A stretch of DNA of 64,000 nt from an uncultured archaeon (GTDB taxonomy: Archaea; Asgardarchaeota; Lokiarchaeia; Sigyniarchaeales; SOKP01): contig CAZDTP010000003.1 in the NCBI GenBank assembly GCA_964508365.1, positions 27,559-91,558 on the forward strand, in the 5' to 3' direction. The notes below the pieces were generated by a model, which ran no database searches, was not told the DNA's origin, and saw only the letters and a program-made list of their open reading frames with translations. Below are positions 26,247 through 52,242 of this stretch, one piece after another (the first letter of the stretch is position 1; every line of letters starts with the position of its first letter). The translations under genes were made by a program, and so were the position numbers.

Positions 26247-28109
26247 ATGCTACCCAAAAAAATGAAGGATTTTCTTAATGAACGCCTTCCAGAAGCCACG
26301 CTTCGAGCTAGAACTAAAAAAGACAATGAAAAATGTTATCTAGAATTTAGTAACTTTGACCAACACCTCTTATCAAGATTAGGAATTGTAAGTGATAAAC
26401 TTGGTCCTCAACTAGTTGCTTGTATCTGGGATGAAAATTCCGAACTTGAAATTGGTGGGTATTTAGTTGTTGATAATCTCTCTATGGGAAGACCTTCTAT
26501 GGGTGGAATTAGAATGCTTCCAAACATAACTCCTGCGGACATCCAAAATCTTGCTCGTGGCATGACGCTTAAAAATGCTGCTGCTAACTTACCATATGGT
26601 GGTGGAAAATCAGGAATAGTAGCTGAAACGAATATCTCATCGGAAATGCACGATAAAATTATAATTGGCTTCGCTCGATTAATAAGAAGATATAAAGATA
26701 TTTATGTGCCCGGTCCGGATGTTGGTACTAAAGATGCTGACATGAAATTAATTGCTATTGAGAACGGTTTAGATAGTGCAGTATCTAAAACTGCTGATAT
26801 GGGAGGTAATCGAATCGATGAATTAGGAGCTGCTGCAGGTGGAGTTGTGATCGCGTTACAGACTTTATTAAAAATTCTTCCCCGAATGAGAGTTTTACCT
26901 CAATTTGCAAATTTGGAAATACCCGATAATAAAAAACTTACTGTCATTATTCAGGGTTTTGGAGCTGTTGGAGCACACGCTTCACGAATACTGTATGAAC
27001 GAATACCTGATGCTAAAGTAATTGGTATAAGTGATCTAGAAGGATATCTATATAACGTTGATGGCCTTCCGATTAAAGATCTTTTTTCTTTATGGGAGGG
27101 TTCAGGATTAGTTACTTATAATTATTTCAACGAGAAGATTATTTCAGAAGGGTATAAACATCCAACTAAATTTTCTACTGAAGCAAATAATTTACTTCTT
27201 GAAAATGCATTTTGTTTGGTGCCTGCTGCACCAATCTTTAATTATTTAGGTGTGCGCGCTACTGACAATGCTTCTATGTTAGTTGAACGCATGGGAAAGT
27301 GGTCTGTAATTATTGAGGGTGCGAATACTTATTCTCCAGATCCAAATCGAAAAGCTGCTCGAACTCGTATGGAACAAATAGTATATGGTGAAAAAGGCGT
27401 AATGATTGCAAATGATTATTTAGTAAACTCCGGAGGAGTAATTTTCGCAGCTCAGGAACATATTATCAAAACTCCGGATAACCTTCAAATCCCGGAAAAT
27501 TTGTTAGGTGACCGTAAAGCAGTAGAGACTTGGTTAAAAGAGCACGAAAAAGATTTTGATGCGTTATCTAAAGAACGTCTTGCAGCGGGAGAAGATTGTA
27601 GAGAAAATGTAATTCATCATAATATGATTGAGTTGATTGATTTATTAGCAGCAAATCAAGACTTGTTGCCTTGTACTGCAGCGGAACGAGTTAGTCTTCA
27701 AAGACTCTCTGAAAAAGAAAAGCAACGTACTGCGAAAGATATCATGGTGTCGATTCCAACTATTGATATCAATAGTAGCATACAAGATGCGGCGAAACTC
27801 ATGATTGATAAAGCGAGCGGCATTATAGCAGTACTTTCTAAGGGAAAATTAAGTGGAGTTGTCACCGATTGGGATGTAACGCAAGCAACAGCTGAAGGTG
27901 TGAGTAACGTAACTTTAGAATTAGTAATGACTAAGAATGTTATAGCAGTCGCTCCTGATTATTCTTTACTCGACATTGTACGTGATTTAGAGCAATATCA
28001 AATTTCTGCCATGCCAGTTGTTAAAGATGGAATGGTTCTAGGAAAAGTTAGCTCAGACTTAATTGCACAGCGATATATGTCAAGTCTTTTACAAGATCGT
28101 AGCCTTTAA
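26247..28109 (+). CDS. Glu/Leu/Phe/Val dehydrogenase-family enzyme fused to a C-terminal CBS pair
   Basis: GGIRMLPNITPADIQNLARGMTLKNAAANLPYGGGKSGI is the catalytic-Lys region. IQGFGAVGAHASR is the NAD(P) fold. The last ~130 aa form two CBS-like repeats (IMVSIPTIDINSSIQDAAKLM.. / VMTKNVIAVAPDYSLLDIV..). Confidence 0.8.
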   Translation: MLPKKMKDFLNERLPEATLRARTKKDNEKCYLEFSNFDQHLLSRLGIVSDKLGPQLVACIWDENSELEIGGYLVVDNLSMGRPSMGGIRMLPNITPADIQNLARGMTLKNAAANLPYGGGKSGIVAETNISSEMHDKIIIGFARLIRRYKDIYVPGPDVGTKDADMKLIAIENGLDSAVSKTADMGGNRIDELGAAAGGVVIALQTLLKILPRMRVLPQFANLEIPDNKKLTVIIQGFGAVGAHASRILYERIPDAKVIGISDLEGYLYNVDGLPIKDLFSLWEGSGLVTYNYFNEKIISEGYKHPTKFSTEANNLLLENAFCLVPAAPIFNYLGVRATDNASMLVERMGKWSVIIEGANTYSPDPNRKAARTRMEQIVYGEKGVMIANDYLVNSGGVIFAAQEHIIKTPDNLQIPENLLGDRKAVETWLKEHEKDFDALSKERLAAGEDCRENVIHHNMIELIDLLAANQDLLPCTAAERVSLQRLSEKEKQRTAKDIMVSIPTIDINSSIQDAAKLMIDKASGIIAVLSKGKLSGVVTDWDVTQATAEGVSNVTLELVMTKNVIAVAPDYSLLDIVRDLEQYQISAMPVVKDGMVLGKVSSDLIAQRYMSSLLQDRSL

Positions 28110-29206
28110 TGATACTTAAGAATACGATATAAAGTGTCTCTTTGTGCCGGATGTTTTCCAGCTGATCGAATAATATCTATTATTTTCTCGGGAGTTAAAT
28201 ATTCTCCAAAATCAGCACCTGCACTTTTAGAGATATTCTCTTCCATTAACGTCCCCGAAAAATCATTAACACCAAAATTAAGAGACACTTGAGCAAATTT
28301 AGGACCCAATTTTACCCATGAGCATTGGATATTGTTTATATAGTTATTGAAAAATATTCTTGCTACAGCAAATAATTTCAAGTCAGCCATCCCATAACTT
28401 GCTTTTAAAGGGTATTCTGTTAGTTTAGATAAAACAGGGTTCATGCTAACAAAAGATAGAGGAACAAATTCGGTAAAACCAGAGGTTTCCGCCTGAATAT
28501 TCCTTAAAACTTGAAGGTGTTCTATTCTATGTTGTAAATCTTCTATATGTCCATACATCATAGTTGAAGTGGTAGGGATGCCTGAATTATGAGCGATTTT
28601 TATAATATCAATCCATTGAGAAGTTGATATTTTATTAGGACATATAACTTTCCTAATTTCATCTACTAATATTTCAGCAGCAGTTCCCGGCATTGAGTCT
28701 AACCCAGCTCTTTTTAATTCTTTTAAGACATCTTCAATAGAAGAACCGTATAATTTTGCCATGTGGAATACTTCTTGGGGAGAAAAAGCATGAGTATGCA
28801 TATTAGAATCAATTTCTTTAACAACCTTTAGAATATCTAGATAGTAATTAAAATCTAGCTCAGGGTTTATTCCTCCTTGTATACAAACTTCTGTACAACC
28901 TGCTCTTTTAGCATCAATTACATCTTCTCTGATTTCTTCATGGGTTTTTAAAAAACTCTCCTCACTTTTATTTGAAACGCTAAAAGAACAAAATTTACAT
29001 CCTTGATAGCAAACGTTTGTGAAATTAATGTTTCGATTTATAATAAAAGTCACAAGATTATTTTTCTTTTCAAAACAAATCTGATCAGCTACCTGTTGTA
29101 GAGCAAAGAAATCTTTGCCGGTAACTTTTAGAAGAGCTAAAGCTTCTTCTTGGTTGATCTCTTCTGAATCCTCAGCTTTTTTGAGAATCTTATTTATTCC
29201 TTTCAT
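28106..29206 (-). CDS. cofH: FO synthase subunit 2 (radical SAM), CofH-like
   Basis: NINFTNVCYQGCKFCSF carries the radical-SAM CxxxCxxC. 366 aa, paired and overlapping with a CofG-like gene. The MqnC/MqnE alternative is not fully excluded. Confidence 0.7.
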   Translation of the reverse strand: MKGINKILKKAEDSEEINQEEALALLKVTGKDFFALQQVADQICFEKKNNLVTFIINRNINFTNVCYQGCKFCSFSVSNKSEESFLKTHEEIREDVIDAKRAGCTEVCIQGGINPELDFNYYLDILKVVKEIDSNMHTHAFSPQEVFHMAKLYGSSIEDVLKELKRAGLDSMPGTAAEILVDEIRKVICPNKISTSQWIDIIKIAHNSGIPTTSTMMYGHIEDLQHRIEHLQVLRNIQAETSGFTEFVPLSFVSMNPVLSKLTEYPLKASYGMADLKLFAVARIFFNNYINNIQCSWVKLGPKFAQVSLNFGVNDFSGTLMEENISKSAGADFGEYLTPEKIIDIIRSAGKHPAQRDTLYRILKYH

Positions 29207-30308
29207 TCAAATTAATATTATCTATCGTTTTTTTAATATTTTCTGGGCAAAAACCATTTTTAGTAATATATTTCTCATAGACAGGAAGTCTCTCTACGAG
29301 TTGGTATCCCATCCTATTACAAATCGTCTCTAAGTATTCAATTTTAGGCCAAACATGTTTCGGGTTAATATAATCCAATGTATAGGGAGAAACACCTCCA
29401 AAATCATCAATTCCTAGCTCAATGGCTTCTTTTTCGTAATTTTGAATTAGATTTGGTGGTACTTGAATAGCTATCTCATTACCTAAAATAAGCTTTGCAA
29501 ATCCCGCGGTTTTTAAAGTTTCTTCAATTGTTAAGGGGTTATCCGGATGGTATTCTATCCCTTCTTTATCAGTGAATTTTTGTATTATGACTTCTTGAAT
29601 ATGACCATATTTAGAGTGAATATCCTTAATTAAAAGAAGGTCTTGTATTCTATCGTCAAAATTTTCTCCTATTCCTAGCAATAAACCCGTTGTAAAAGGG
29701 ATTTTTAATCTACCCGCGTTTTTAATGTGTTTAATTCTGTTTTCTGGAATCTTGCCAGGTGAATTATAGTGAACTCCTCCTTCTTTGAGGAGGAGCTTGT
29801 TTGTACTTTCTATCATTAGCCCCATACTTGCATTACATTCCTTCAAACTTTTTAATTGTTCGTAAGTTAGTAACCCTACATTAGTATGAGGCAAAATATT
29901 TGCATCTAACAATCTGAAACATAAATTCCTTACAAATTGGGTAAAATCTTTAAAATTTCTTCCTTCCAACTCACTACGAACTTCATTATAGCTATCGGGA
30001 AATTCGCCTGACATTAATAGAGCTTCTTTACAATTATATTGAGTGGCGGTTTGAATTAATTCATTAATTTTTTCCTCTCTAATTAATGCGACATTTTCTT
30101 CGTCAGAGCCCTTAGGAATTGTATGGTTGTAAAAACAATACTTACATCGGTTCTGACAATAGTTTGATAAGGATAAGGTAAAATTTTTGGAGTAAGTAAT
30201 TACATTATGCTTTTCTCTTGGTAATTCTGCCCTTACTTCACTTATTTCTTCTTTTAACCTCTTAAGTGATAAATTTTTTAATCTTTCTAGATTCTTTGGT
30301 GCATTCAT
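29190..30308 (-). CDS. cofG: FO synthase subunit 1 (radical SAM), CofG-like
   Basis: LSLSNYCQNRCKYCFY carries CxxxCxxC. It is adjacent to the cofH-like gene and to a diaminopyrimidinone reductase whose product feeds FO synthase. Confidence 0.7.
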   Translation of the reverse strand: MNAPKNLERLKNLSLKRLKEEISEVRAELPREKHNVITYSKNFTLSLSNYCQNRCKYCFYNHTIPKGSDEENVALIREEKINELIQTATQYNCKEALLMSGEFPDSYNEVRSELEGRNFKDFTQFVRNLCFRLLDANILPHTNVGLLTYEQLKSLKECNASMGLMIESTNKLLLKEGGVHYNSPGKIPENRIKHIKNAGRLKIPFTTGLLLGIGENFDDRIQDLLLIKDIHSKYGHIQEVIIQKFTDKEGIEYHPDNPLTIEETLKTAGFAKLILGNEIAIQVPPNLIQNYEKEAIELGIDDFGGVSPYTLDYINPKHVWPKIEYLETICNRMGYQLVERLPVYEKYITKNGFCPENIKKTIDNINLNERNK

Positions 30309-30988
30309 CGCTTCGTTTTTCTATATTTAAGAATTACATAATTATTTCTGCTGGTAACATTTATTAAACTATATCTTGGGCTCTCTATCATTTTTTCAAA
30401 CCCTTCCCCTTCCACTAAGCTTACTGCATCTTTACCACCTACCATCCAAGGCGCAATAAATATTCTGATCTCGTCTACTATATTTTCCCTAATAAAACTC
30501 CAGTTTAAATTTCCTCCACCCTCTAGGAGAATTCTTCTTATTCCCTTCTGATATAAAATGGGCATTAGTTTAATTATATCAACTCTACTCCCTGTCCCTG
30601 ACTTTATAATCTCAATGTCGTTAGATTCGAATTCTCTAATCCTCTCCACAGACGCATTTTCAGTAGTTGCTATTATGGTCGGATAAATTTCAGGTTTGTA
30701 TCTAACTACATTTGATTCGATAGGTATCGAAAGAGTGCTATCTAACACAATTCTATAATAACTTTTGTGATCGTAGAACTTGATGTGCAATTTTGGGTTA
30801 TCTGAAATAATCGAACATTTGCCAATCATGATGGCATCGACTTCTGTCCTGAGCTTGTGAACAGCCATCCAATCTTCTTCATCTGAAATTTCTGGATCTC
30901 CAGTTTTAGAAGCAATTTTTCCATCGATTGTCATAGCAGCACTTAAAATTATGTAAGGTCGTTTATCTCCTTTCAAATACCACCACAC
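30305..30988 (-). CDS. 2,5-diamino-6-ribosylamino-4(3H)-pyrimidinone 5'-phosphate reductase (RibD C-terminal domain type)
   Basis: PYIILSAAMTIDGKIASKTGDPEISDEEDWMAVHKLRTEVDAIMIGKCSIISDNPKL and RILLEGGGNLNWSF are typical of the RibD_C/archaeal reductase family. Confidence 0.75.
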   Translation of the reverse strand: MWWYLKGDKRPYIILSAAMTIDGKIASKTGDPEISDEEDWMAVHKLRTEVDAIMIGKCSIISDNPKLHIKFYDHKSYYRIVLDSTLSIPIESNVVRYKPEIYPTIIATTENASVERIREFESNDIEIIKSGTGSRVDIIKLMPILYQKGIRRILLEGGGNLNWSFIRENIVDEIRIFIAPWMVGGKDAVSLVEGEGFEKMIESPRYSLINVTSRNNYVILKYRKTKR

Positions 30989-32135
30989 CTTTAATGTAAG
31001 TCTTCTTTATATTCTCTGATTTAGTTCTTTGAACGATGATGTTGTAAATACTTTCAGAATCAATTTTATATGTATAATAATTTGGATGAGAAAGGTCAAC
31101 TAAAAAGAAATCAGCATATTTTCCTGCTGAAATTGAACCATATTCTTTTTCTAATCCCAAATTTCTAGCAGCAGTAATGGTAACCATTTCTAGTAGATCC
31201 TTTGATGTTAAATTCTTACAATCCTTATGCACGGCTAATACTCGGGAAATTCTATATAAATATCGCATTTCTTCGAATAAGTCAGTATTGTTAGCCATTA
31301 CATTATCAGTACCGAGACTAATTGGGATTCCAAGATCATAAATCTCATTTATTGGCGGAAATCCACTTCCAAAATAACCGTTGCATCTAGGACATAAGAC
31401 TAAAGAAATGTTTTTTTTTTTTAATCTTTCCAAATCATCTTTATTGTAGTGAGTTCCATGTATAACGACATCAATCAGCTGATCATTTATAATTAGATTG
31501 AAGAGTAACTCGTCTCTCGAGAGTTCACTATCATGAGTCGCAATAATTTTGTCTAAATATTCTCTCTTCAAACCTCTGATAATTTCTTTGTGTTCCGAAG
31601 ATAATTGATCGTAGCTAGCAAATCCCAAACCATCAGCACATTTAAAAACGGAATCGATCTCTGTTGTATCATTAAATCTTCCCAAGATGCGATAGTTAAT
31701 TGGAGACTTTTGCAATGCTTCTTTTAAAAGGGCAATGCCAATTAATCCATCTTCTCTAAAGTCGAAGAACATAGTTATACCGCTTGCAAGCATTTCTATC
31801 GCAGCCTCTCTTATTCCATGCATTTTTATTTCTTTTGAGGTTTTACTTAGTAATACATGCTTGATTCCATTTGGAGGAGCAACCGTTTCTATTAAATCTT
31901 TATTAAAGCCCTGTTCTTTCGCAAAACTATCACAAATATGAACATGGGAATTAATAAAACCAGGGATCAATAGGCAGAACTGTTTTTTTTTGGAGAAAGT
32001 AATATCCTCTTTAATAGTATCGTAGAAGATGTCTGTGATCTTTCCATTATCATCTAATTCTATTGAAATATTCTTTTTTAATTCTAATCTATCTCCAATC
32101 AAACCAAAGTTACTGCGAATGGTGGTGTTAGACAT
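30963..32135 (-). CDS. amidohydrolase-superfamily deaminase (TRZ/ATZ / DadD-like)
   Basis: PGFINSHVHICDS is the HxH metal motif, with a downstream SLGTDNV Asp motif. 390 aa. The substrate cannot be determined from sequence alone. Confidence 0.6.
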   Translation of the reverse strand: MSNTTIRSNFGLIGDRLELKKNISIELDDNGKITDIFYDTIKEDITFSKKKQFCLLIPGFINSHVHICDSFAKEQGFNKDLIETVAPPNGIKHVLLSKTSKEIKMHGIREAAIEMLASGITMFFDFREDGLIGIALLKEALQKSPINYRILGRFNDTTEIDSVFKCADGLGFASYDQLSSEHKEIIRGLKREYLDKIIATHDSELSRDELLFNLIINDQLIDVVIHGTHYNKDDLERLKKKNISLVLCPRCNGYFGSGFPPINEIYDLGIPISLGTDNVMANNTDLFEEMRYLYRISRVLAVHKDCKNLTSKDLLEMVTITAARNLGLEKEYGSISAGKYADFFLVDLSHPNYYTYKIDSESIYNIIVQRTKSENIKKTYIKGVVVFERR

Positions 32136-32202
32136 AGGACACTCAAAATTTTTTGTTCTTTCGATTAAAAAGCATTACCTTTAACGACAATCAAGACTAC
32201 AA

Positions 32203-32760
32203 CTAGCTCTTTAGAAGTTCTAACGCCTCTGATCTGGTAATAGGATTTGTTTTAAAAATACCTTTTATTGCCGATGTTATCATTATTGGGTTAGATTGCT
32301 TTACGCCTCTCATTATTTCACATAAGTGAGTTCCTTTTACAATAACCATCACTCCTCTCGGTTTTAAAGCACACTCCATTAAGTAATTAGCAATGTCATC
32401 TGTCATTTTTTCCTGAACATTTAACCTATGAGTAAAATAATTAACAACCCTTACGAATTTTGAAATTCCTAGAAGATATTCTCCGGGCATATATACGATA
32501 TCAATTGTACCATAAAAAGGTAAAATGTGGTGTTCACACATGCTGTAAAATTGAATATCCTTTGATATTATTATTTCACTATATTGTGCTTTAAAAATTT
32601 TTATATCCTTATCCAAATCCAGCTGATATCCGTCAAAAATTTCATTGTACGAGTTAGCTACTCGTCTTGGAGTTTCTAATGTTGCAGGTCTTAAATCGTC
32701 ATTACCTTCAATTTCTTTAATGAGTTGGGTAATTAATTCTTGTACTCTTTCTTTATTCAT
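32203..32760 (-). CDS. folE: GTP cyclohydrolase I (FolE type)
   Basis: FYSMCEHHILPFYGTIDIVYMPGEYLLGISKFVRVVNYFTHRLNVQEKMT is the FolE active-site block (CEHH...GLSK...R.QvQE). Confidence 0.9.
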   Translation of the reverse strand: MNKERVQELITQLIKEIEGNDDLRPATLETPRRVANSYNEIFDGYQLDLDKDIKIFKAQYSEIIISKDIQFYSMCEHHILPFYGTIDIVYMPGEYLLGISKFVRVVNYFTHRLNVQEKMTDDIANYLMECALKPRGVMVIVKGTHLCEIMRGVKQSNPIMITSAIKGIFKTNPITRSEALELLKS

Positions 32761-32915: not shown

Positions 32916-34034
32916 TTACTTCTTTAGGAAATGTCTATAAATTGTCACATAGTTTTTTACACTTACTACTCTAGGATTACGCCTAAAATTAGAAGGAATA
33001 AGAGCACTACAGCGTGAACAGAGTTTTGAAGTCTGCATCCAATCTTTAAATTCATCAGCGTGGGAAGGATACCTGCAGTTTGGACATACAACTACTCCTC
33101 GTCCTCTATCTTCCGGAAGTTTTGGTAATTTAAAACAAAAGATACACTTGAAATCCTCTAATGTTAAATATGATCCTTTTGGTTTAAATTTGTCAAAATT
33201 TTGGATTTTTGAAGTTGATTTAGTTCTAGTTATATGAGTTGCATTTGATGTTTTTTTTCTAGTGGTTTGCTTTTTTGACGTAGGAGTTATTCTTGATGAT
33301 TGAGTTCTAGATCTTGTTGTACGAGTAGTTGCTCTAGTAGAGGGTGTTGGATTAGTTACCCTTGTTGTCCTTACATTCTGTCTCTGTATTGTAGGTGTGG
33401 TTAAACTATTAATAGTTCTAGTACGATTTGCGATGTAATCACGAGTTAATGTAGGTAGTGATGAGCGTGTATTAGTAAATCCAAAAAGTATTACTATTAA
33501 AATCGTAGCAATTAATAGCAGCAAGAGATTTAAGTCTAATGGAAAACTTTCAATAGAACCATAGAAAGTTATCCAATAAGTTAGAATGAAAATAAGAACT
33601 GAGATTGATAACATGTACCCTAGCGTTCTCGCTTTTACTGCCTTTGTTCCAAAGTATATTACATTGTATTTCTTAAAACAACGATATAAAGAGTAAGAAC
33701 CATACAATATGTAAGGAAAAGCAAAAATTAGGCTCCATAAACTAAAATATACCCCTCCGAGAAGATTTTCACCCAATACACCTGTATAAAAACCCCATAT
33801 AGAATAAAAAATTCCCACACATAACGGAAGAATTACAAAAAATGCAGTATTTTGTGGTGAATTAAACTCACGATGACGTTTTATGTTTTCAAATATTTTT
33901 AAAGTGAATATTAACCATAACCCAATTAATAACCAAGTAACAAAATTAGAAAAAGAATAGGAGAGTAAACCATGGATTGCACCAATTATTAGAAAAATAG
34001 TACATATTATTGTTATAGTTTTATTTCTTGCCAT
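32916..34034 (-). CDS. six-TM membrane protein with Thr/Arg-rich linker and C-terminal RING-like zinc finger (candidate E3)
   Basis: There are about six hydrophobic helices in residues 1-190. A low-complexity T/R/S linker follows (TRVTNPTPSTRATTRTTRSRTQSSRITPTS...). Then comes CIFC-x16-CPNC-x4-H-x13-CSRC. It is the last gene of the Ubl-E1-E2-JAMM operon. Confidence 0.55.
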   Translation of the reverse strand: MARNKTITIICTIFLIIGAIHGLLSYSFSNFVTWLLIGLWLIFTLKIFENIKRHREFNSPQNTAFFVILPLCVGIFYSIWGFYTGVLGENLLGGVYFSLWSLIFAFPYILYGSYSLYRCFKKYNVIYFGTKAVKARTLGYMLSISVLIFILTYWITFYGSIESFPLDLNLLLLLIATILIVILFGFTNTRSSLPTLTRDYIANRTRTINSLTTPTIQRQNVRTTRVTNPTPSTRATTRTTRSRTQSSRITPTSKKQTTRKKTSNATHITRTKSTSKIQNFDKFKPKGSYLTLEDFKCIFCFKLPKLPEDRGRGVVVCPNCRYPSHADEFKDWMQTSKLCSRCSALIPSNFRRNPRVVSVKNYVTIYRHFLKK

Positions 34035-34066: not shown

Positions 34067-34873
34067 TTATTCATCATATTCTAAATATGCTGGTTTCCCT
34101 TCAATAATTGGATTCATGAATTCTAAAATTTCTGGTAACATTCTCACATCTAAATGGCCCTTAATATCAAAAGGTACCGAGTACCATTTTTTAGTTTTAA
34201 AATTTGCACGATAGATCTCAAAACCTACAGATTTTCCGTTAATTTGATAAGGATCAATTACTAAAGCTACTGATTTATCCCAAAATTGCTGATATCGCCT
34301 TTGAGTCCCTAAGTCTTCTCTAGACATGAAACATCCATATGAGGGATGAGAATGATACCATCCACAAATAAATTGCTTACTTTTTACAATATCTTCATAT
34401 GCTCGAGTAAAATTGTTATAATCTTTAATTTCAGCATAGACTGCAGTGCCGTGACCCATTGGATATGCATCTTCTAAATATAATATTCCATTGTCATAGC
34501 TTCCAGCGAGTAACCCAATCACCTCAACCCAGTTCTCTTTCCTAATTTTGGAATTCGCATATTTCAACGAATGACTTGAGATCTTTAGGATAGCTTTTAC
34601 AGTTATTTTTATCTTTGCAGAAATTTTATCACTTTTATCACCTTTAGCGATAGTTATTACAGGTTCCATTGGAATTGGTTCTAATTTGGTTTTTATACTT
34701 TCTGAATGGTTTAAAGATTTCGCATCAAAAATTTCAGCGGTTATTTCTTCCTGTAATTCTTCGAGTTGTAATTCGGTGTATACTTCCTCAAGTATTTCTT
34801 TTTTGATCTTTTCCTTTATTTTTTGTTTAATTGCATCTCTAATTTTTTCACCATTCTCATCGTTAATTTTCAT
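34067..34873 (-). CDS. JAMM/MPN+ metalloprotease (Rpn11/CSN5-like deubiquitinase candidate)
   Basis: EVIGLLAG supplies the conserved Glu, and GWYHSHPSYGCFMSREDL is HxH-x7-S-x2-D. It has a ~110-aa K/E-rich N-terminal extension. Confidence 0.85.
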   Translation of the reverse strand: MKINDENGEKIRDAIKQKIKEKIKKEILEEVYTELQLEELQEEITAEIFDAKSLNHSESIKTKLEPIPMEPVITIAKGDKSDKISAKIKITVKAILKISSHSLKYANSKIRKENWVEVIGLLAGSYDNGILYLEDAYPMGHGTAVYAEIKDYNNFTRAYEDIVKSKQFICGWYHSHPSYGCFMSREDLGTQRRYQQFWDKSVALVIDPYQINGKSVGFEIYRANFKTKKWYSVPFDIKGHLDVRMLPEILEFMNPIIEGKPAYLEYDE

Positions 34874-34877
34874 AAAA

Positions 34878-35405
34878 TCACCATTTATCCTTCGCGTATT
34901 TCTTTACCAAATTCCTAACTTTTTTTTCAAAATTTTTCTGATCTTTCATCATCTCAATAGCTGCCTTTTTGTTAAAAACATCAGTTGGATTAACATATTT
35001 TCCACGAGTGTTTAACATAGCAATTATTGCTTGAACAACTGTAACCGCTGTTTTTGAAGGACTCCATCCCCCTTTTTTGCCAGTTAGAGAAGGATCTACT
35101 AAAGCTAAGCAGATATTTCTTTGTCCTTTATATTCACTTGGCTTTGGCCAAAAGTTTGGATGCCATATCGGAGTATGCAATCTAACAAAAGGAGGCTGAT
35201 TTGGATATTGAACAGGAAACTTCATTTCTAATTTAAACAATCCTCCTGCATAAGCAGTGCCTTTAGGACCTTTAATCGTAACAGCTAAGTGATCGATGCT
35301 CTTTTTTTTTGGATTAAATGGCTTTAATTGGATAATTGTACCTTCCTTTAGCAACTTTTTTAGTCCCGCAAAATCTCGGGAAACTCGACTACTTCTTATA
35401 CTCAT
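34878..35405 (-). CDS. ubiquitin-conjugating enzyme (E2/UBC fold)
   Basis: GPKGTAYAGGLFKLEMKFPVQYPNQPPFVRLHTPIWHPNF...RNICLALV contains the UBC core with the HPN motif and catalytic Cys. The downstream GGWSPSKT...AIIAML matches the W-P helix region. Confidence 0.85.
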   Translation of the reverse strand: MSIRSSRVSRDFAGLKKLLKEGTIIQLKPFNPKKKSIDHLAVTIKGPKGTAYAGGLFKLEMKFPVQYPNQPPFVRLHTPIWHPNFWPKPSEYKGQRNICLALVDPSLTGKKGGWSPSKTAVTVVQAIIAMLNTRGKYVNPTDVFNKKAAIEMMKDQKNFEKKVRNLVKKYAKDKW

Positions 35406-35471: not shown

Positions 35472-36707
35472 TTATTTAAATTTTAAGGTTACATAAATCT
35501 CTCCACCTTTAAACCCCGCAACTGTGAGAAATTCGTAATTCCTCAAATCGTTTTGTACAAGAGTTTGGTCATTATCTAAAACGACAATATCATTAAAATC
35601 TAATAAAGTTAAAACCGGTTCAAATTCAGATTCCAATTCATATCCATTTCTTTCTAGTGTTTTAATTAAATTTGTACAAGGTGAAGTACTCTTCATTTTA
35701 ATGGAAACTCGTCTTACCTTTTTACCGCACTGAGAACATTCTGGATTTCTCTTCTTTTCAATGTGGTATAGTTTCATTGTCACAGCATTAAATATCACAT
35801 AACTTGTAATAGGCTGACCTAATCCTTTATGACCCCTTTTCCAATGAAGGATTTTAACCACCTCATGAGATTGTAATGCCGAAATAGTTGCGTTAATTGT
35901 AATTATCCCAGGATCGTGGCGATCAATAATTTTTACAATATCATCTTCGGTATATTCAGGTAAGAAATTGTGTTTTACAACAAGTTCATTTGCAACTTTT
36001 TGAATAAATCTAATATCTTCTACATTTTTAGGATTTGGATCTGTGTCAAATTTATCTTTAAAGGCCATATCTCCTTTAAAGACACAATGAATTCTTTTTC
36101 GAGGGATGCCAACCACCGTGCAAGCTGCCATTTCATCACTTTTGAGATCTGGCAATGGATTGCATTCATAACATGCATTTCGATATGGAAATATCGTATA
36201 TATGTGACCATAATAACCAGAAACCCCTCCATCTACTAAAGGTTTTCTGAATCTAATGCATTGAGCGTTTAAATTTAGCCTTGCGTTCATTGAATCAAGA
36301 CCTCCAATTACAACATCTGCATTATAATAGAGTGCAGGGTTTAATCTTTCTAAGGATGAATGATACCCTTTAACAATAATATTTGGATTAATTTCGACTA
36401 ATTTTCTTGCAGCTGCAATTGCTTTGGGTTCTCCTAACTTTGCGCCCACAAACAGAATTTGACGGTTCAGGTTAGAATGTTCAATTATGTCTAAATCGAC
36501 AAGATCTATATGACCTACCCCTAACATGGTTAAGTTTTTAGCAATTTCACATCCTAAACCTCCTACGCCAGCTATTAATACTCTCGACTTTTTTACTAAT
36601 TTCTGGGACCATCCTTCTAAACGAAATTGACGATCGTATAAGTCTCTCTCTTCTTCTGACATTCCCTTTGCAAAAAAATCTGAATTCTTACGCAATATTA
36701 TCACCAT
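35472..36707 (-). CDS. E1-like ubiquitin-activating adenylyltransferase (ThiF/MoeB/UBA family)
   Basis: YDRQFRLEGW...VLIAGVGGLGCEIAKNLTMLGVGHIDLVDLDIIEHSNLNRQILF is the adenylation-domain signature. There are two CxxC pairs (CYEC, CSQC), a candidate catalytic Cys in AACTVVG, and an extra ~85-aa C-terminal domain. Confidence 0.85.
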   Translation of the reverse strand: MVIILRKNSDFFAKGMSEEERDLYDRQFRLEGWSQKLVKKSRVLIAGVGGLGCEIAKNLTMLGVGHIDLVDLDIIEHSNLNRQILFVGAKLGEPKAIAAARKLVEINPNIIVKGYHSSLERLNPALYYNADVVIGGLDSMNARLNLNAQCIRFRKPLVDGGVSGYYGHIYTIFPYRNACYECNPLPDLKSDEMAACTVVGIPRKRIHCVFKGDMAFKDKFDTDPNPKNVEDIRFIQKVANELVVKHNFLPEYTEDDIVKIIDRHDPGIITINATISALQSHEVVKILHWKRGHKGLGQPITSYVIFNAVTMKLYHIEKKRNPECSQCGKKVRRVSIKMKSTSPCTNLIKTLERNGYELESEFEPVLTLLDFNDIVVLDNDQTLVQNDLRNYEFLTVAGFKGGEIYVTLKFK

Positions 36708-36780: not shown

Positions 36781-37116
36781 TTATTTAAAAGTACCCGCTG
36801 TGCTTGCAGGGATTAAAAGTATATCGTCGCCATCATTAACATTATAGTCTTTTAACTGGCTACTCTCATCCATTGTTCTTCCACCAGAAGAAAGATGGAA
36901 CTCATCTGGATCAAGTCCGAATAGATTTCCTAATGTTTGTTTGATATCGCTTACGTTATTTGCGTCATTTACAGTTAACTTTTCCTTCTTTTCACCAGGA
37001 CCAATAGTTGACATGAAATATAAAGTCAACTTCTTACCTGTTGAGGGAACTTTGCTTGATGGGGTTTTAGATTTAACTGGTTCTAACTCCTCATCAAAAT
37101 CTTCATTATAACCCAT
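36781..37116 (-). CDS. ubiquitin-like beta-grasp protein precursor (Ubl-1)
   Basis: 111 aa: an acidic or disordered N-terminus, then a ~75-aa segment with Ub-like periodicity (KLTLYFMS...SDIKQTLGNLFGLDPDEFHLSSGGRTMDESSQLKDYNVNDGDDILLIPASTAG-TFK). It is the first gene of the E1/E2/JAMM operon. Confidence 0.7.
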   Translation of the reverse strand: MGYNEDFDEELEPVKSKTPSSKVPSTGKKLTLYFMSTIGPGEKKEKLTVNDANNVSDIKQTLGNLFGLDPDEFHLSSGGRTMDESSQLKDYNVNDGDDILLIPASTAGTFK

Positions 37117-37378
37117 TTTAATCGTTTCTCTTATTTTTTTTTTAAAGTTTTTTTTTTAAACTTAATAATATCAAGTTAAAATGATATTAAAAAACCCATT
37201 GGAATGATTTTGAAGTTTTTTGAATTTTTGTTTAAAATATAAGTATCTACATCAAAAAACCTAATATCATATATTTATAAATTAAATGAATGACTATCAA
37301 TATATATAAATAGGAAAATATCGTATTAGAGAGAAGATTTGATTATATAAATCAATTTATTCAACACGTTAAAATCAA

Positions 37379-38062
37379 TTGCTTATGAGCACTCCAGATA
37401 ACCTTCAATCTATTGTTTGTAATCTAATAAAGGAATATCTAAAAAAGAAACCTTTCTTTTCAATAGAAGATATTGTAATGTTCATCAGTAATAGGGTAAG
37501 AACTAACCCTAATTTGAACAAACGCAGCATTGAAATCATCATTAAAAATCTCATTAAAAGAAGAATTCTAATCCCTGGAACTAAATTAATGAAAAATAAT
37601 ATCATCGAGCATCCAATAAGAAATGAAATCTATAATTATATAAGAAAGAATCCTTCGAATGTTAATGATATAATGAAAGCAATTAATATTGGGAGTAATC
37701 AAGCGTTATGGCATTTATCTTGCTTAGAAAAATTTAGATTTACAAGATCAACAAAAATCGAGAATCAAAGAATAATTTTTGAATATGAATCAAATTCAGA
37801 TCTAGATGAGTTGTATTACTATTTAAAACAGGATATTGTACAAGATATTATCAACCTACTGAAAAAAGAAAACACCTCATTTAAAATTACGGAAATTGCT
37901 GCCAATTTAAAAAAAAATTACAATACTGTAAAAAAATATCTTGAAATATTAGGAACTCTGAAAATATTAAAAATTGAAAAAAATAAAAAAAGAGTTTTAT
38001 TCAGATTAGATCAAGAGAAATATGATAATATTAGGAAATCCATTATTGATGGTGAATTATAA
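37379..38062 (+). CDS. double winged-helix (ArsR/TrmB-like) transcriptional regulator
   Basis: There are two wHTH-like units (IRNEIYNYIRKNPSNVNDIMKAINIGSNQALWHLSCLEKFRF and ITEIAANLKKNYNTVKKYLEILGTLKILKIEK). It is divergent from Ubl-1. TTG start. Confidence 0.5.
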   Translation: MLMSTPDNLQSIVCNLIKEYLKKKPFFSIEDIVMFISNRVRTNPNLNKRSIEIIIKNLIKRRILIPGTKLMKNNIIEHPIRNEIYNYIRKNPSNVNDIMKAINIGSNQALWHLSCLEKFRFTRSTKIENQRIIFEYESNSDLDELYYYLKQDIVQDIINLLKKENTSFKITEIAANLKKNYNTVKKYLEILGTLKILKIEKNKKRVLFRLDQEKYDNIRKSIIDGEL

Positions 38063-38141
38063 AATTTACAAAGTTATTCCAATGGAATTTATATTTTGAA
38101 TTATATATTAGAAAATTAGATAATACTTTAATCAAAAAATC

Positions 38142-38930
38142 ATGAAGAAGAAATATAGAGTTTTAAATATCATAACTCTTTATGTTGTTTTCACTTTAAT
38201 TTATTTGATTTTTTTCATATTCCAAATAGAGAGTTTACCTTTATTTCTCTTTCTAACTATTGGGAGTGTTGCTGTATTATCTACCAGCACGATCTATACC
38301 GTTGTTAAATCTAAAAGCAGTCCAGCGAAGAGGATAAAAAAAGATAAATATTATCAAAAACCAAAATCAATCAAAAGAATATCGAGTGATTTGATTGAGG
38401 ATTACTTCGAAGCCATGCCATTAATAGATCAATACGCTGATACTGATGTATCTTTTGAAAATGTAGAATCAATCGATGATTATATCTTCACTTTTTTCAA
38501 ACAAGAGGAAGTAGATAAAATCGATTTGTTAGGGTTTTCAAAAATGGATAAAATCTTTTTTATCAGAGAGATGTTGTATTTTGATGCTGGTGAGAGAAAG
38601 CAGCTAATCGAAGATATTTTGAAAAATAAAGATATAACTGATGAACAGATAAAATACTACCCGCCTTTAAACATAATTGGATTGAATGATAAATTACGCG
38701 TTTACATAAGGTCATTAGTCGAACCTGGTGAGAAGACCAAAATACTCATAATTGAAACCTCCGAATTAATAAGTATAATCAAAGAACAAGTTGGAATTCT
38801 ATTTGATTATGGTTTAGAAGATTTTTCCCTATCCACAGGAGGTTTAATATTAGATGAAACTAAGCAGATAAAGGACTATTTTATTGACGAGGATGACGAA
38901 ATTGCTTTAATTCCATCAAAAAAAAAATAG
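38142..38930 (+). CDS. two-TM membrane protein with C-terminal ubiquitin-like domain lacking a conjugatable terminus
   Basis: The N-terminus has a hydrophobic hairpin (VLNIITLYVVFTLIYLIFFIF / LPLFLFLTIGSVAVLSTSTIYTVV). The C-terminal 80 aa align by eye with Ubl-1/2 (EPGEKTK..., LSTGGLILDETKQIKDY, DDEIALIPSKKK) but end in KKK rather than AG/GG. Confidence 0.6.
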   Translation: MKKKYRVLNIITLYVVFTLIYLIFFIFQIESLPLFLFLTIGSVAVLSTSTIYTVVKSKSSPAKRIKKDKYYQKPKSIKRISSDLIEDYFEAMPLIDQYADTDVSFENVESIDDYIFTFFKQEEVDKIDLLGFSKMDKIFFIREMLYFDAGERKQLIEDILKNKDITDEQIKYYPPLNIIGLNDKLRVYIRSLVEPGEKTKILIIETSELISIIKEQVGILFDYGLEDFSLSTGGLILDETKQIKDYFIDEDDEIALIPSKKK

Positions 38931-38949: not shown

Positions 38950-39369
38950 TTATATCCTTTCAATATAACAACCAGCAACACTCGCTGGAATTAATAAAAT
39001 GTCATCTCCATCATCTACATTGTAATCACTCAGCGTAGATTCTTCATCCATGGTAACTCCTCCAGAAGACAAATAAAAATCAGATGGATCTAAAGCAAAT
39101 AAATTCGCTATAGTATCTTTAATATCTCTTACCATATTACCCGTGAAGACGGTAAGCTTTTGTTTTTTCTCCCCTGGTCCTATAGTGGATAAAAAAAAAA
39201 CTGAAATCTTTTTTCCTTCAGAAGAGATTGTGGGTTCTGGAGTTTTAGATCTAATATCTTCTGTTTGGTCCTTTTTAGACTGATCATCAATATCTTTATC
39301 CAAGCTTTCATCAATTTCCTCATCGAATTCTTCATCGAACTCCTCTTCAAATTCATCGTCAAAATCCAT
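38950..39369 (-). CDS. ubiquitin-like beta-grasp protein precursor (Ubl-2), paralog of Ubl-1
   Basis: 139 aa with a strongly acidic repeat N-terminus (DFDDEFEEEFDEEFDEEIDE). The Ubl core is closely similar to Ubl-1 (STIGPGEKK.KLTV, LSSGG.TMDE, GDDILLIPASVAG-CYIERI). Confidence 0.7.
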   Translation of the reverse strand: MDFDDEFEEEFDEEFDEEIDESLDKDIDDQSKKDQTEDIRSKTPEPTISSEGKKISVFFLSTIGPGEKKQKLTVFTGNMVRDIKDTIANLFALDPSDFYLSSGGVTMDEESTLSDYNVDDGDDILLIPASVAGCYIERI

Positions 39370-39548: not shown

Positions 39549-40652
39549 ATGAAGGATAAACCTATTCCTAAGTATCAAATTCGAGAAAAAACACCCGAAG
39601 AGCAACTAGACACCATTCCTAAAACAAAATTACTTAAAAAAATTAAGGAAGAAAGAATTAAATTAAATAGAGAAAAAACTGAATGGGAGAGCGTTATTAG
39701 CAAAGTTGAAGGTTATCAAGATAATATTCAAGATTTAGAAAAAAAAAGAAAAGAAAAAGAACTTCAAGTCAGAGACCTTCAAAATCAACACGAAAAACTA
39801 AAAAACGATCTAGACAATATGAGAAATGAATTAAAAGAAAGTAAAAATAATCTATATGAGAAAGAAAGGGAGTTAGATCAAAAAAATGCTGACTTAGAGC
39901 GATATCAAGAGAGATTAGATGGACTAAGAGATGAATTAGAGAGTGAGAAGAAAGACTTAGAAAGAGAAAAAGAAAAAGCAAAAGAAAGAATTAAAGAAAT
40001 TAAAACCAAATTACCCGGAATGGAACGGAGAGAGAGTGCCTTAGAGAGAACAATTGAAAAGTTGGAAAACAATTTAATGGATTTAAGAAACGAAGGTAAG
40101 AGTTTAACGAGAGAAAGAGATAATTTAAACAATGAAATCAATAGTTTGAGAAGAGAGATAGTAGATGAAAAAAATCGAATTGATGATGAGAAAAGAAGAT
40201 TAAAAGATGAAAAAGAAAAGGTTCGCTATAAGAAAAAAGACTTAAGTCTCAAAGCTCGTGATATTGAAAAAAAAAAAGAGCAATTGGGAAAATTTAAAGA
40301 GGATGTAGATCACGATGTAAAAGACTTAGAAAGAAAGAAAAAAGGGCAAGAAGTAAGATTAAAGGAATTAGATAGGAAGGTACCTAAGGCAGAAGATACT
40401 TATTTTTCATTAGAACATAAAATTGGTAACTTAGAAAATAAACTGAAAAGCTTAAAAGATGAAATAAAAAAACTGGAAAAGGAAAAATCGAAAATAGAAG
40501 ACGATAAATTTTCAATTAGAAAGGAGAGGCAAAGATTAGAAAGTGATAAAGAGAGATTTCTTAAAGAAAAAAGAGATTTTGAAAGAGAATTGAAAAAAAC
40601 AAAAGAAATCCCAAAATATAAAATCAAATCAAAAACGCCTTCGAGATATTAA
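39549..40652 (+). CDS. long K/E-rich coiled-coil protein with matching N- and C-terminal IPKY.I..KTP motifs
   Basis: 367 aa, almost entirely heptad-like charged sequence (EKERELDQKNADLERYQERLDGLRDELESEKKDLEREKEKAKE...). The termini carry PIPKYQIREKTP and EIPKYKIKSKTP. Confidence 0.6.
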   Translation: MKDKPIPKYQIREKTPEEQLDTIPKTKLLKKIKEERIKLNREKTEWESVISKVEGYQDNIQDLEKKRKEKELQVRDLQNQHEKLKNDLDNMRNELKESKNNLYEKERELDQKNADLERYQERLDGLRDELESEKKDLEREKEKAKERIKEIKTKLPGMERRESALERTIEKLENNLMDLRNEGKSLTRERDNLNNEINSLRREIVDEKNRIDDEKRRLKDEKEKVRYKKKDLSLKARDIEKKKEQLGKFKEDVDHDVKDLERKKKGQEVRLKELDRKVPKAEDTYFSLEHKIGNLENKLKSLKDEIKKLEKEKSKIEDDKFSIRKERQRLESDKERFLKEKRDFERELKKTKEIPKYKIKSKTPSRY

Positions 40653-40672
40653 TTAGTATAGTTGGGGGATTT

Positions 40673-41710
40673 ATGAAAATTCCAAAAGGAATTGAAGGGG
40701 ATTACCTTGAAACAAAAGAAAACAACCTTTTTTTCGATATAAAAGGTTATCACCATCCCCGAGACCGTAGAATTTGTTTTTTAAGATTTTATCCAGATCA
40801 AAATGGGGAAAGAATAAAAGAAGGCAAAAAATTTAATAAAATCTATTCTTTAGATGAAAGATATTTGAAATTAAGAGAGGAATACCCACAGTATCTTTTT
40901 TTTTCAAATGAACTTGATTTAGAGCTTCAGGGCGTAGAAATTAAAGATATAAAGAAAATTTATACGCCCCGAGAATACTATGATGCATTAAAAATGAGGA
41001 ATAATTTGTCAGAAATCGAAATCCATTCCAAAAATTTGTGTGAGTTATTTATTACAGGCGGTTCCATACCAGAAGATGCAATCGGTATTTCTGGTTCCCC
41101 CATGATCGGATTAAGTAAAGATGATTCTGATATAGATGTAATAATATATGGAACTCGTGCTAGTTTAGAGTTTCAAGATAAATTAAAAACAATACTGCTT
41201 ACTTCAAACAATTGTAGGGCGTATAACTTAAGCGAATATAAAACTCATTATAATTGGAGGGTAGGAGGTTCTGGCATTAGTTTCGAGAATTTTTTGAGAA
41301 GTGAAAAAAGAAAGTTACATCAAGGAAAATTCTATGGAATTGATTTCTTTATACGATATATTAAAAGCCCTAATGATTGGAATGGAACTTTCTACGATTA
41401 CAAATTCAAGAACTTAGGAAGGATTGAAATAAAAGCAAAAATTGTAGATTCAACCGATTCCATTTTTACTCCCTGCTCTTATAAAATTAATGGTATAGAA
41501 ATCGTAGATAAAAAATTTATTAGAAATGATATAAATTTAAAAGATATTACTGAAATCAACTCATTTCGCGGTAGATTTTGTGAACACGCTAAAGATGGAG
41601 AAACTGTGTTAGTTAAAGGAAAACTAGAAGAAGTAGTTTTCAAAAATAACAAAAAATATCTAAGAATTCTACTTACGGATCAAAAACAAGATATTTTTTG
41701 CGTAATATAG
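40673..41710 (+). CDS. predicted Pol-beta-superfamily nucleotidyltransferase (COG1665-like) with OB-like C-terminus
   Basis: GISGSPMIGLSKDDSDIDVIIYG fits the NTase motif hG[GS]-x9-13-DhD. The C-terminal region resembles the OB part of TiaS-related proteins. This call is by eye only. Confidence 0.45.
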   Translation: MKIPKGIEGDYLETKENNLFFDIKGYHHPRDRRICFLRFYPDQNGERIKEGKKFNKIYSLDERYLKLREEYPQYLFFSNELDLELQGVEIKDIKKIYTPREYYDALKMRNNLSEIEIHSKNLCELFITGGSIPEDAIGISGSPMIGLSKDDSDIDVIIYGTRASLEFQDKLKTILLTSNNCRAYNLSEYKTHYNWRVGGSGISFENFLRSEKRKLHQGKFYGIDFFIRYIKSPNDWNGTFYDYKFKNLGRIEIKAKIVDSTDSIFTPCSYKINGIEIVDKKFIRNDINLKDITEINSFRGRFCEHAKDGETVLVKGKLEEVVFKNNKKYLRILLTDQKQDIFCVI

Positions 41711-51822: not shown

Positions 51823-52242
51823 ATGGCAAGACCTATAACTCCAATAGTGGCTGTTGATGCGGTTATAAGATTTAAAAAAACTTCGATAGTGCTAATTCGG
51901 AGGAAAAATCCCCCCTTTAAAGGAGAGTTCGCTTTACCTGGAGGATTTGTTGATGTTGGAGAGAGCGTCGAGGACGCGTGTATTAGAGAAGCTTATGAAG
52001 AAACAAATATTAAGGTAAAAATTAAAAAACTGATTGGTGTTTTTTCAGCACCCAATAGAGATCCTAGAGGACATACCATATCAGTAGCTTATTTATGTGA
52101 ACCATTAACAAATTCAGAGAAGCCAATGGCCAAAGACGATGCTCAGTCTTTAAAAATTGTAAAATTAACAGATATTTCATCTTTAAAACTAGCGTTTGAT
52201 CATAAAGATATCATAAATGCGTCAGGTATTATTAAGATTTAG
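51823..52242 (+). CDS. NUDIX hydrolase
   Basis: The Nudix box GGFVDVGESVEDACIREAYEETNI (Gx5Ex7REUxEExGU) is present. Confidence 0.9.
   Translation: MARPITPIVAVDAVIRFKKTSIVLIRRKNPPFKGEFALPGGFVDVGESVEDACIREAYEETNIKVKIKKLIGVFSAPNRDPRGHTISVAYLCEPLTNSEKPMAKDDAQSLKIVKLTDISSLKLAFDHKDIINASGIIKI

Follow-up and report, generated by a model that had tools for sequence, protein, structure and literature searches.

What does a ubiquitin-like (Ubl) domain do when it is built into a membrane protein and lacks the end by which modifiers of its kind are conjugated? The question is raised by a gene in a 64,000-nucleotide stretch of an uncultured Lokiarchaeal genome (contig CAZDTP010000003.1; hereafter the window, G+C ~30%), where an open reading frame (ORF) at 38142..38930 on the forward strand begins with ATG and encodes 262 amino acids (aa) plus a stop codon beside a group of ubiquitin-system genes. 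Database matches to the gene carry the names Lokiarchaeota or Promethearchaeota, the latter being NCBI's present phylum for Promethearchaeia, formerly Lokiarchaeia. The product, termed here TM-Ubl after its transmembrane (TM) and Ubl parts, is strongly supported by its sequence features as a cytoplasm-facing, membrane-anchored ubiquitin-domain protein consisting of a hairpin, a basic stretch, a helical 'tail' domain and a Ubl domain. As to its role, we favour a co-regulated, membrane-fixed Ubl docking adaptor, a reading to which we assign a probability of about 0.45.

TM-Ubl opens with two hydrophobic segments, TM helix 1 (aa 8-28; 38163..38225, +) and TM helix 2 (aa 34-55; 38241..38306, +), which reach 19-residue Kyte-Doolittle means of up to 2.46 and are joined by a loop of 5 residues (IESLP). 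Four lysines and arginines lie ahead of the hairpin (MKKKYR) and 11 in the 30 residues that follow it (aa 56-85). Hydropathy and charge counts thereby confirm the N-terminal two-helix hairpin with positive flanks that a preliminary description of this DNA, made from the sequence alone, had proposed. Because basic residues flank the hairpin on both sides, both termini should be cytoplasmic under the positive-inside rule, TM helix 1 setting the hairpin with its N-terminus inside. Sequence and structural model alike support the further suggestion of an integral, cytoplasm-facing Ubl-domain protein without a conjugation terminus. TM-Ubl has 375 homologues at E<=1e-3, and among the 120 listed nearly all are full length (236-279 aa); one database entry was automatically named "Ubiquitin-like domain-containing protein".

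TM helix 2 carries the polar motif IGSVAV.S.S..YT, recognised from the family alignment and profile matches, and within it G41, S42, S47, T50, Y52 and T53 are invariant in the family. It is followed by the basic juxtamembrane stretch (aa 56-80; 38307..38381, +), a low-confidence segment by its predicted local distance difference test score (pLDDT <50) that is probably disordered. The region between hairpin and Ubl domain had been described as a linker of ~110 aa. An intervening region does exist (aa 56-183), but its residues ~81-165 (38382..38636, +) form a conserved domain, the tail domain, and not a mere linker.

The Ubl domain (aa 184-259; 38691..38918, +) is a paralogue of two free, conjugatable-type Ubls encoded in the window: Ubl-1 (36781..37116, -; Pfam ubiquitin 6.5e-8), which ends in PASTAG plus an extension TFK, and Ubl-2 (38950..39369, -; recognised by BLASTP), which ends in PASVAG plus CYIERI. 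TM-Ubl residues 174-259 are 37% identical to Ubl-1 (BLASTP E 6e-19) and 35% identical to Ubl-2 (E 2e-16), while Ubl-1 and Ubl-2 are 63% identical to each other; the short strings that had been aligned by eye are all present. Against the Pfam ubiquitin family, with a cut-off of 25.4 bits, Ubl-1 scores 32.7, Ubl-2 25.2 (just under the cut-off) and TM-Ubl 15.3. An AlphaFold2 model built from a 61-sequence alignment predicts a beta-beta-alpha-beta-beta arrangement for residues 184-258 (pLDDT 74-88); a single-sequence run gave a mean pLDDT of 39.9 and was not used. The top Foldseek matches of this model in the PDB are all ubiquitin folds, among them the Dsk2 UBL (2bwf; E 3e-6, TMt 0.85, root-mean-square deviation 1.5 A), Caldiarchaeum ubiquitin (6fno), NEDD8 and ISG15. 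The domain, for which a structural check had been advised, thus models as a beta-grasp.

That the best structural match is the Dsk2 UBL bears on one rival explanation, in which the domain would play the part of a Rad23/Dsk2 UBL or a Ubx2/UBXD8 UBX and draw Cdc48/PAN-20S or ESCRT receptors to the membrane for degradation. Receptors of the proteasome or of Cdc48 are common binding partners of type-2 UBL domains, which speaks for this idea. So do the presence of Cdc48-20S in archaea (PMC13328587) and the link of Asgard ESCRT-I/II components to ubiquitin (PMC9192718). However, Foldseek ranking does not discriminate among ubiquitin folds, the position of ubiquitin Ile44 is Ser/Thr in the TM-Ubl family, and the conserved neighbourhood contains no gene for Cdc48, the proteasome or ESCRT. 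A degradation recruiter of this type is therefore improbable.

TM-Ubl terminates in ...LIPSKKK, the basic KKK (38919..38927, +) taking the place, in the alignment, of the T-A-G end of the free Ubls. The lack of a conjugatable terminus had been read from this single protein; sequence comparison bears it out as a family trait. All 78 distinct orthologues have LIP followed by S/K-R-K and basic residues (consensus LIPSRK plus basic residues); a Gly occurs among the last 8 residues in 3 of the 78 and as the final residue in 2, at a position that is not homologous. In 138 of the 144 distinct free Ubls compared from related loci, S-[TIV]-A-G closes the sequence or is followed by a short extension: its Gly is the last residue in 113 and has 1-8 residues behind it in 25. 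The free Ubls of these Lokiarchaeota end in A-G rather than G-G, the A-G standing five residues past LIP. TM-Ubl lacks what marks a conjugatable modifier, a C-terminal Gly at the end of the beta-grasp tail, whether exposed or with a cleavable extension behind it. Without the S-T/I/V-A-G end it should therefore escape E1 activation and JAMM release, and stay fixed in the membrane.

These termini also bear on the notion that TM-Ubl is, in spite of its terminus, a cryptic precursor from which a modifier is cleaved and conjugated. Its one point of support is the pair of orthologues ending in Gly (..SRKNRG and ..SRKDRG), whereas the family has no conserved Gly past LIP and never the A-G of the free Ubls, so this notion is nearly refuted. 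A further idea takes TM-Ubl as a substrate or primer, on which E2 and E3 enzymes would build Ubl chains upon a non-removable Ubl and its Lys-rich flanks to give a membrane-anchored signal like that of ubiquitin fusion degradation. TM-Ubl does have a Lys-rich juxtamembrane stretch and C-terminus and conserved Lys in its Ubl domain, but the idea is purely analogical and the positive-inside rule explains the basic flanks equally well, which leaves it very unlikely.

Both groups of Ubl share the signatures PGEK, DF.LSSGG, DY and D.I.LIP, which suggests, by sequence, a retained recognition surface and shared binding partners. The extensions of Ubl-1 and Ubl-2 in the window (3 and 6 residues) imply that these free Ubls would need processing, presumably by the adjacent JAMM protease. 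Conjugatable-type Ubls ending in STAG also occur fused behind other domains (P0140, P0146, P0149, P0151, P0135; L045 2449-4002), including Roadblock/LC7-Ubl and zinc-ribbon/coiled-coil-Ubl fusions and a triple-Ubl polyprotein; their sequences suggest N-terminally extended or polyprotein modifier precursors. Other membrane-linked Ubl architectures were seen in the representatives P0198, P0200, P0210 and P0212, some with Ubl repeats and a C-terminal TM anchor, and one with an N-terminal TM segment and a Ubl ending in IPAKYKVK with no terminal Gly.

The tail domain, defined by family alignments and profile search, is as conserved in the TM-Ubl family as the Ubl domain, with the core consensus EEL.KIDLL.LS.EEKK.FIKE.L.L...ERK.LIDEML; AlphaFold2 places helices at residues 112-162 (pLDDT 55-80). 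When the TM-Ubl family profile was searched against 1.84 billion cluster representatives, it returned just five or six full-length relatives. Beyond these, the query region from ~32/72 to 164, comprising TM helix 2 and the tail domain, matches the extreme C-termini of proteins of 160-2081 aa (E 1e-10 to 1e-4). In this way the tail domain was found in about 40 cluster representatives of large Lokiarchaeal surface proteins. Their usual layout is a signal or anchor sequence, a large N-terminal region, one TM helix, a basic stretch and a terminal tail domain, which sometimes occurs as two tandem copies. Their N-terminal regions contain LamG/TSP3, NosD beta-helix, WD40/propeller or SBBP repeats. 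In 16 representatives a zinc (Zn) finger, C-x2-H-x10-C-x2-C-x4-C-x2-C-x10-C-W-S-C, is present, usually between the TM helix and the tail domain. The weak profile matches of this receptor finger in the PDB are nearly all to RING or PHD domains (MDM4/MDM2 0.017-0.2, RNF4 0.027, RBBP6 0.03, TRIM25 0.08).

TM-Ubl shows each hallmark of this family, namely a TM helix with the IGS..S..Y motif, a basic stretch and a tail domain of ~85 aa. The comparison strongly supports TM-Ubl as a 'headless' member whose ectodomain has shrunk to the 5-residue loop, TM helix 1 apparently doing no more than orient TM helix 2 like the single TM helix of the type-I tail proteins. Profile searches with the tail domain found no family in Pfam or NCBIfam and no match in the PDB. 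Below the Pfam cut-offs, TRI4_N was matched by 8 of 34 sequences (best 9e-4) and Cue1_U7BR by 3 of 34 (best 0.01); these matches span short helical stretches and are leads only. A by-eye likeness of TM-Ubl residues 121-162 to UBA/CUE three-helix bundles was also noticed and is not claimed. A homologue search with the tail alignment gave 1 protein, and one with a paralogue of the regulator described below gave 3, numbers that reflect an insensitive index and not family size. A match of the tail hidden Markov model (HMM) at 51896-52015, weak and out of frame inside a Nudix-like gene, was dismissed as noise. In two places the large proteins appear divided: at L092 2-643 a stop codon stands between the ORF with the Zn finger and the ORF with the tail domain, and at L086 2368-8324 a 1395-aa ORF is closely followed by a 578-aa ORF with Zn finger and tail domain. 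Assembly errors, pseudogenes or split genes are all possible.

The ubiquitin-system genes of the window, mapped from ORFs and Pfam, lie next to TM-Ubl on the opposite strand. Besides Ubl-1 and Ubl-2, the latter convergent with the TM-Ubl gene across a gap of 19 bp, they comprise an E1-like ThiF gene (35472..36707, -; Pfam 2.7e-56), an E2 of the UQ_con family (34878..35405, -; Pfam 7.8e-27), a Rpn11-like JAMM/MPN+ gene (34067..34873, -; Pfam JAB 8.7e-14) and a multi-TM protein with a C-terminal RING-like finger (32916..34034, -; assigned by its finger pattern, with weak RING scores). A scan of species-representative genomes gave 80 loci at 42-96% identity, and window proteins were compared by BLASTP with the ORFs of these loci; L045, which contains masked N runs, was not used. 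Gene order is near-constant: RING-JAMM-E2-E1-Ubl, then wHTH-TMUbl, then Ubl, where wHTH denotes a winged helix-turn-helix protein. TM-Ubl is linked to ubiquitin genes in every one of the ~80 species-level loci. The synteny check that had been advised therefore came out positive, TM-Ubl homologues being always co-located with ubiquitin-system genes.

Much of this synteny is simple collinearity among relatives, and the informative case is a rearranged clade (L074, L077-L079; ~44% identity). Here the flanks differ and E1, E2 and JAMM genes are not found within 10 kb, while the RING-Ubl and wHTH-TMUbl pairs stay joined. In the same loci (for example, L077 7865-10807) a small GTPase gene follows TM-Ubl. 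The RING protein of this clade has 220-229 aa and no TM segments, whereas the TM-Ubl hairpin is kept.

The finger of the operon protein has the invariant pattern C-x2-C-x16-C-P-x-C-x4-H-x2-E-F-x2-W-x6-C-S-R-C, that is, RING-H2-like spacing with seven invariant Cys/His, a Glu at ligand 6 and an F-x2-W motif. Its matches are weak, both to the RING families of Pfam (E ~0.3) and to PDB profiles, where IFT144/WDR19 Zn domains score best (0.03-0.07) and RING E3s reach 2.4-9. Comparison of the receptor finger with this operon finger by hhalign showed no relationship (probability 23%). In the window protein, a long low-complexity linker rich in Thr, Arg and Ser (aa ~190-280) leads from the TM region to the Zn finger.

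The preliminary description had likened the pair of membrane Ubl and membrane RING to the HERP/Usa1-Hrd1 scaffold of eukaryotes. On this explanation, TM-Ubl would organise the multi-TM RING ligase of the locus into a quality-control module like that of endoplasmic reticulum (ER)-associated degradation (ERAD). The two genes do keep together in one conserved locus across ~80 species, most lineages have both proteins anchored in the membrane, the RING gene stays by Ubl, wHTH and TM-Ubl even where E1, E2 and JAMM are elsewhere, and the same promoter box (see below) stands ahead of the TM-Ubl gene and of the operon that includes RING. The analogy nonetheless found no direct support: the domain order is the reverse of HERP/Usa1, and sequence similarity ends at the Ubl fold. 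The proposed module of TM-Ubl and TM-RING is weakened by the clade whose RING protein is without TM segments although TM-Ubl keeps its hairpin, and by the position of the TM-Ubl gene outside the RING transcription unit and paired with wHTH. The scaffold also leaves the tail domain and the wHTH pairing unexplained, and the conserved neighbourhood showed no Derlin, Hrd3 or Cdc48 partner. We regard it as rather unlikely.

The partner that does accompany TM-Ubl is the wHTH gene (37379..38062, +), which encodes two winged-helix (wH) domains and an N-terminal region (Pfam HTH_5 5e-6) and which probably begins at the ATG at 37385, for a length of 225 aa. Its NCBIfam matches are ArsR/SmtB (5e-9) and SdpR (3e-7), and it also resembles HVO_0163_N and TrmB-type factors. 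An identity of this double-wH protein as an ESCRT-II-like component (Vps25/Vps22) was rejected, because its profile finds only DNA-binding wH proteins in the PDB. The gene lies directly upstream of TM-Ubl wherever upstream DNA exists, and in 1.5 Mb of window and loci the family occurs only there, with no stray copies.

The same pairing recurs with the large tail proteins. A metagenome scan with the receptor finger yielded ten loci, which were searched with HMMs. In L084, L086 and L087 the proteins with Zn finger and tail domain are each preceded on the same strand by a wHTH paralogue; L085 and L094 hold tandem cassettes, in which a tail protein is followed by a wHTH gene and then by the next large protein. 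The cassette paralogues are 35-40% identical to the wHTH protein of the window over ~200 aa (BLASTP E 1e-40 to 1e-44). The only complete protein with the Zn finger but no tail domain, that of L091, has no wHTH neighbour.

A TTCCA box abutting a TATA-like box lies 47 nt before the TM-Ubl ATG (38077..38094, +; exact pattern match) and contains the inverted repeat ATTCCA-A-TGGAAT. A second exact match, ~71 nt before the Ubl-1 ATG (37187..37204, -), is the putative promoter of the Ubl-1-E1-E2-JAMM-RING operon. The pattern, TTCCA-N3-G-R-N-TTTWTAW, comes from six sites aligned without gaps: one ahead of TM-Ubl, one ahead of Ubl-1 and four ahead of the receptor genes of L084, L086, L094 and L085. The window thus has 2 exact matches against 0.01 expected. 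The 76 sites counted across 1.435 Mb of loci divide into 44 in the position of the Ubl-1 promoter, 27 before TM-Ubl, 4 in paralogous cassettes and 1 elsewhere, and 62 of 69 Ubl-1 promoters have the box within 1 mismatch. Such scarcity elsewhere argues against a generic promoter consensus. A pattern search found no TTCCA box in the region upstream of Ubl-2, and a third ATTCCAATGG 10-mer, at 34666 inside the JAMM ORF, misfits the extended box and was treated as chance.

The window accordingly has a complete cassette of paralogous wHTH gene, TTCCA/TATA box and target gene (37379-38062, 38077-38094, 38142). L084, L086 and L094 share this arrangement, as does L085 downstream of its wHTH gene, and L087 has the wHTH-tail gene pair without a clear box. 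The short spacer between wHTH and TM-Ubl has a conserved core, and the intergenic region between Ubl-1 and wHTH contains blocks that are at least 90% conserved over 69 distinct loci. Further blocks at that level in 37117-37378 read AAACTTAATAA, TTATAAATT.AATGAATG.CTAT.AATATATATA and TTTAGAGAGAA; judged by sequence, the GAATGA repeats of this region could be additional factor sites.

The cassettes permit a different explanation, a switch of the SdpI/SdpR or anti-sigma type, in which the tail domain would hold its cognate wHTH factor at the membrane. The Ubl domain, or the RING finger in the large paralogues, would then link the fate of the factor, release or degradation, to the ubiquitin machinery, with feedback on the operon. 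The recurring wHTH-to-tail gene pair, the SdpR/ArsR-like signature of the wHTH protein, the TTCCA box at both promoters and the fact that nothing but the tail domain and TM helix is common to all cassette members are in its favour. Physical contact between wHTH and tail domain would be a presumption, however; regulator and target genes are often adjacent without their products binding each other, and few paralogous cassettes have complete context. We consider both parts of this explanation, tethering and coupling to ubiquitin machinery, possible but on balance unlikely.

From the observed anatomy, family relationships, synteny and cis-element specificity we infer the following mechanism for the docking adaptor. 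The wHTH protein may be the transcription factor for the TTCCA box and, if so, would co-regulate TM-Ubl with the conjugation machinery. TM-Ubl would serve as a non-transferable Ubl 'handle' at the cytoplasmic face of the membrane, its Ubl domain being a fixed docking module if it is indeed barred from the E1 pathway. Proteins that recognise the Ubl type of the locus, whether E1, E2, JAMM, the RING E3 or Ubl receptors, could dock on this handle, and the TM helix and tail domain might tie TM-Ubl to partners of its family, either its own wHTH factor or the receptors with RING finger and tail domain. Ubiquitin-type chemistry or recognition would in this way be brought to the membrane.

Several observations weigh against the docking adaptor. 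TM-Ubl, taken alone, falls under the Pfam ubiquitin cut-off (15.3 against 25.4 bits), and its Ubl assignment therefore rests on likeness to its paralogues and on the predicted structure. For the tail domain no fold relative could be recognised, and confidence in the model is no more than moderate there. The exact box precedes TM-Ubl in just 24 of 74 distinct loci, or 45 of 74 if 2 mismatches are allowed, and it is absent on the Ubl-1 side in the rearranged clade. Since the pattern was derived from the very sites that it matches, only its absence elsewhere counts as a test. Beyond the TM-Ubl locus, the pairing of wHTH and tail domain is seen in 3 cassettes with usable upstream DNA and 2 tandem arrangements, and a regulator gene may be adjacent without its product touching the tail domain.

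A more far-reaching idea is that the receptor-like RING/tail proteins signal to their cognate wHTH factor by ubiquitin-type chemistry. TM-Ubl would then tether the operon's own regulator, report the Ubl state and set expression of the conjugation system; or the fixed Ubl would serve as a mark of 'ubiquitinated cargo' for ESCRT/Cdc48. This is speculative and has the odds clearly against it. If true, it would amount to a transmembrane receptor-E3-transcription-factor pathway in an archaeon. The receptor-RING-tail/wHTH family is in any case a lead of possibly greater novelty than TM-Ubl, the unannotated tail domain linking many receptor-like RING proteins to dedicated regulators.

Other genes near the locus include a cluster at 28106-32760 (-), adjoining the ubiquitin genes and collinear in relatives, with two radical-SAM CofH/CofG-like genes, RibD_C, an amidohydrolase and GTP cyclohydrolase I; it resembles cofactor biosynthesis of F420 or pterin type. 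Divergent after Ubl-2, at 39549-41710, are genes for a 367-aa coiled-coil protein and a 345-aa protein with a faint nucleotidyltransferase-like signature, which are syntenic in most loci and moved or absent in the rearranged clade. At 52258-53031 (-) a 257-aa small-GTPase-like protein has a double CxxC zinc motif at its C-terminus.

Membrane-anchored, non-conjugated ubiquitin-domain proteins are known from eukaryotic ER quality control. If the docking reading holds, an ER-type membrane UBL design was already present in Lokiarchaeota and the archaeal ubiquitin system would be tied to the membrane, which would bear on the origin of ERAD and of ubiquitin-dependent sorting. The parts are clonable: a soluble 200-aa TM-Ubl fragment, the wHTH factor with its 18-bp box, and the E1, E2, JAMM and RING proteins of the locus.

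Among known systems, HERP (HERPUD1)/Usa1 of the Hrd1 ERAD complex is like TM-Ubl in combining a membrane hairpin with a cytosolic, non-conjugated UBL, and the likeness extends to the neighbouring RING-like protein, which is mostly membrane-bound. HERP/Usa1 has an N-terminal UBL followed by a C-terminal TM hairpin, whereas TM-Ubl runs from hairpin through tail domain to UBL. The conserved tail domain is an extra feature of TM-Ubl, the RING partner is soluble in one clade, and TM-Ubl has no HERP/Usa1-related match in Pfam or NCBIfam. TMUB1/TMUB2 and the UBX adaptors Ubx2/UBXD8 are presumably also comparable, as membrane-anchored proteins that present a ubiquitin-fold domain to the cytosol for docking. 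They are eukaryotic ER proteins working with p97/Cdc48, whereas no linkage to Cdc48 was seen for TM-Ubl.

For the wHTH-TM-Ubl pair, we take the closest parallels to be BlaR1/BlaI and SdpI/SdpR, each an adjacent membrane protein and winged-helix factor of ArsR/SdpR/BlaI-like type. Unlike BlaR1 and SdpI, the cassette proteins have no protease or SdpI-like domain and have instead a cytosolic RING-like finger, tail domain or Ubl, and their coupling to the factor would be a presumption from gene order. The large paralogues presumably resemble E3s of the gp78/AMFR type (TM-RING-CUE-G2BR) in their TM anchor, RING-type finger and small cytosolic helical domain. They differ in that the tail domain matches Cue1 U7BR and TRI4_N only below threshold, the ectodomains are receptor- or adhesin-like and each gene is paired with a wHTH gene.

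A full-text literature search, extending to papers outside subscription, gave no description of a membrane-anchored Ubl gene, tail domain, wHTH cassette or promoter box of this kind in the text that it covered. The ubiquitin operons of Caldiarchaeum subterraneum and Asgard archaea comprise Ub, E1, E2, a small RING protein and a Rpn11-like JAMM protein (PMC5654768, PMC6043591, PMC9192718). All five of these kinds of enzyme and modifier stand together in the window, and the Ubl model of TM-Ubl matches the Caldiarchaeum ubiquitin structure 6fno, while the Lokiarchaeal Ubls described here differ from those modifiers in ending in A-G and not in G-G.

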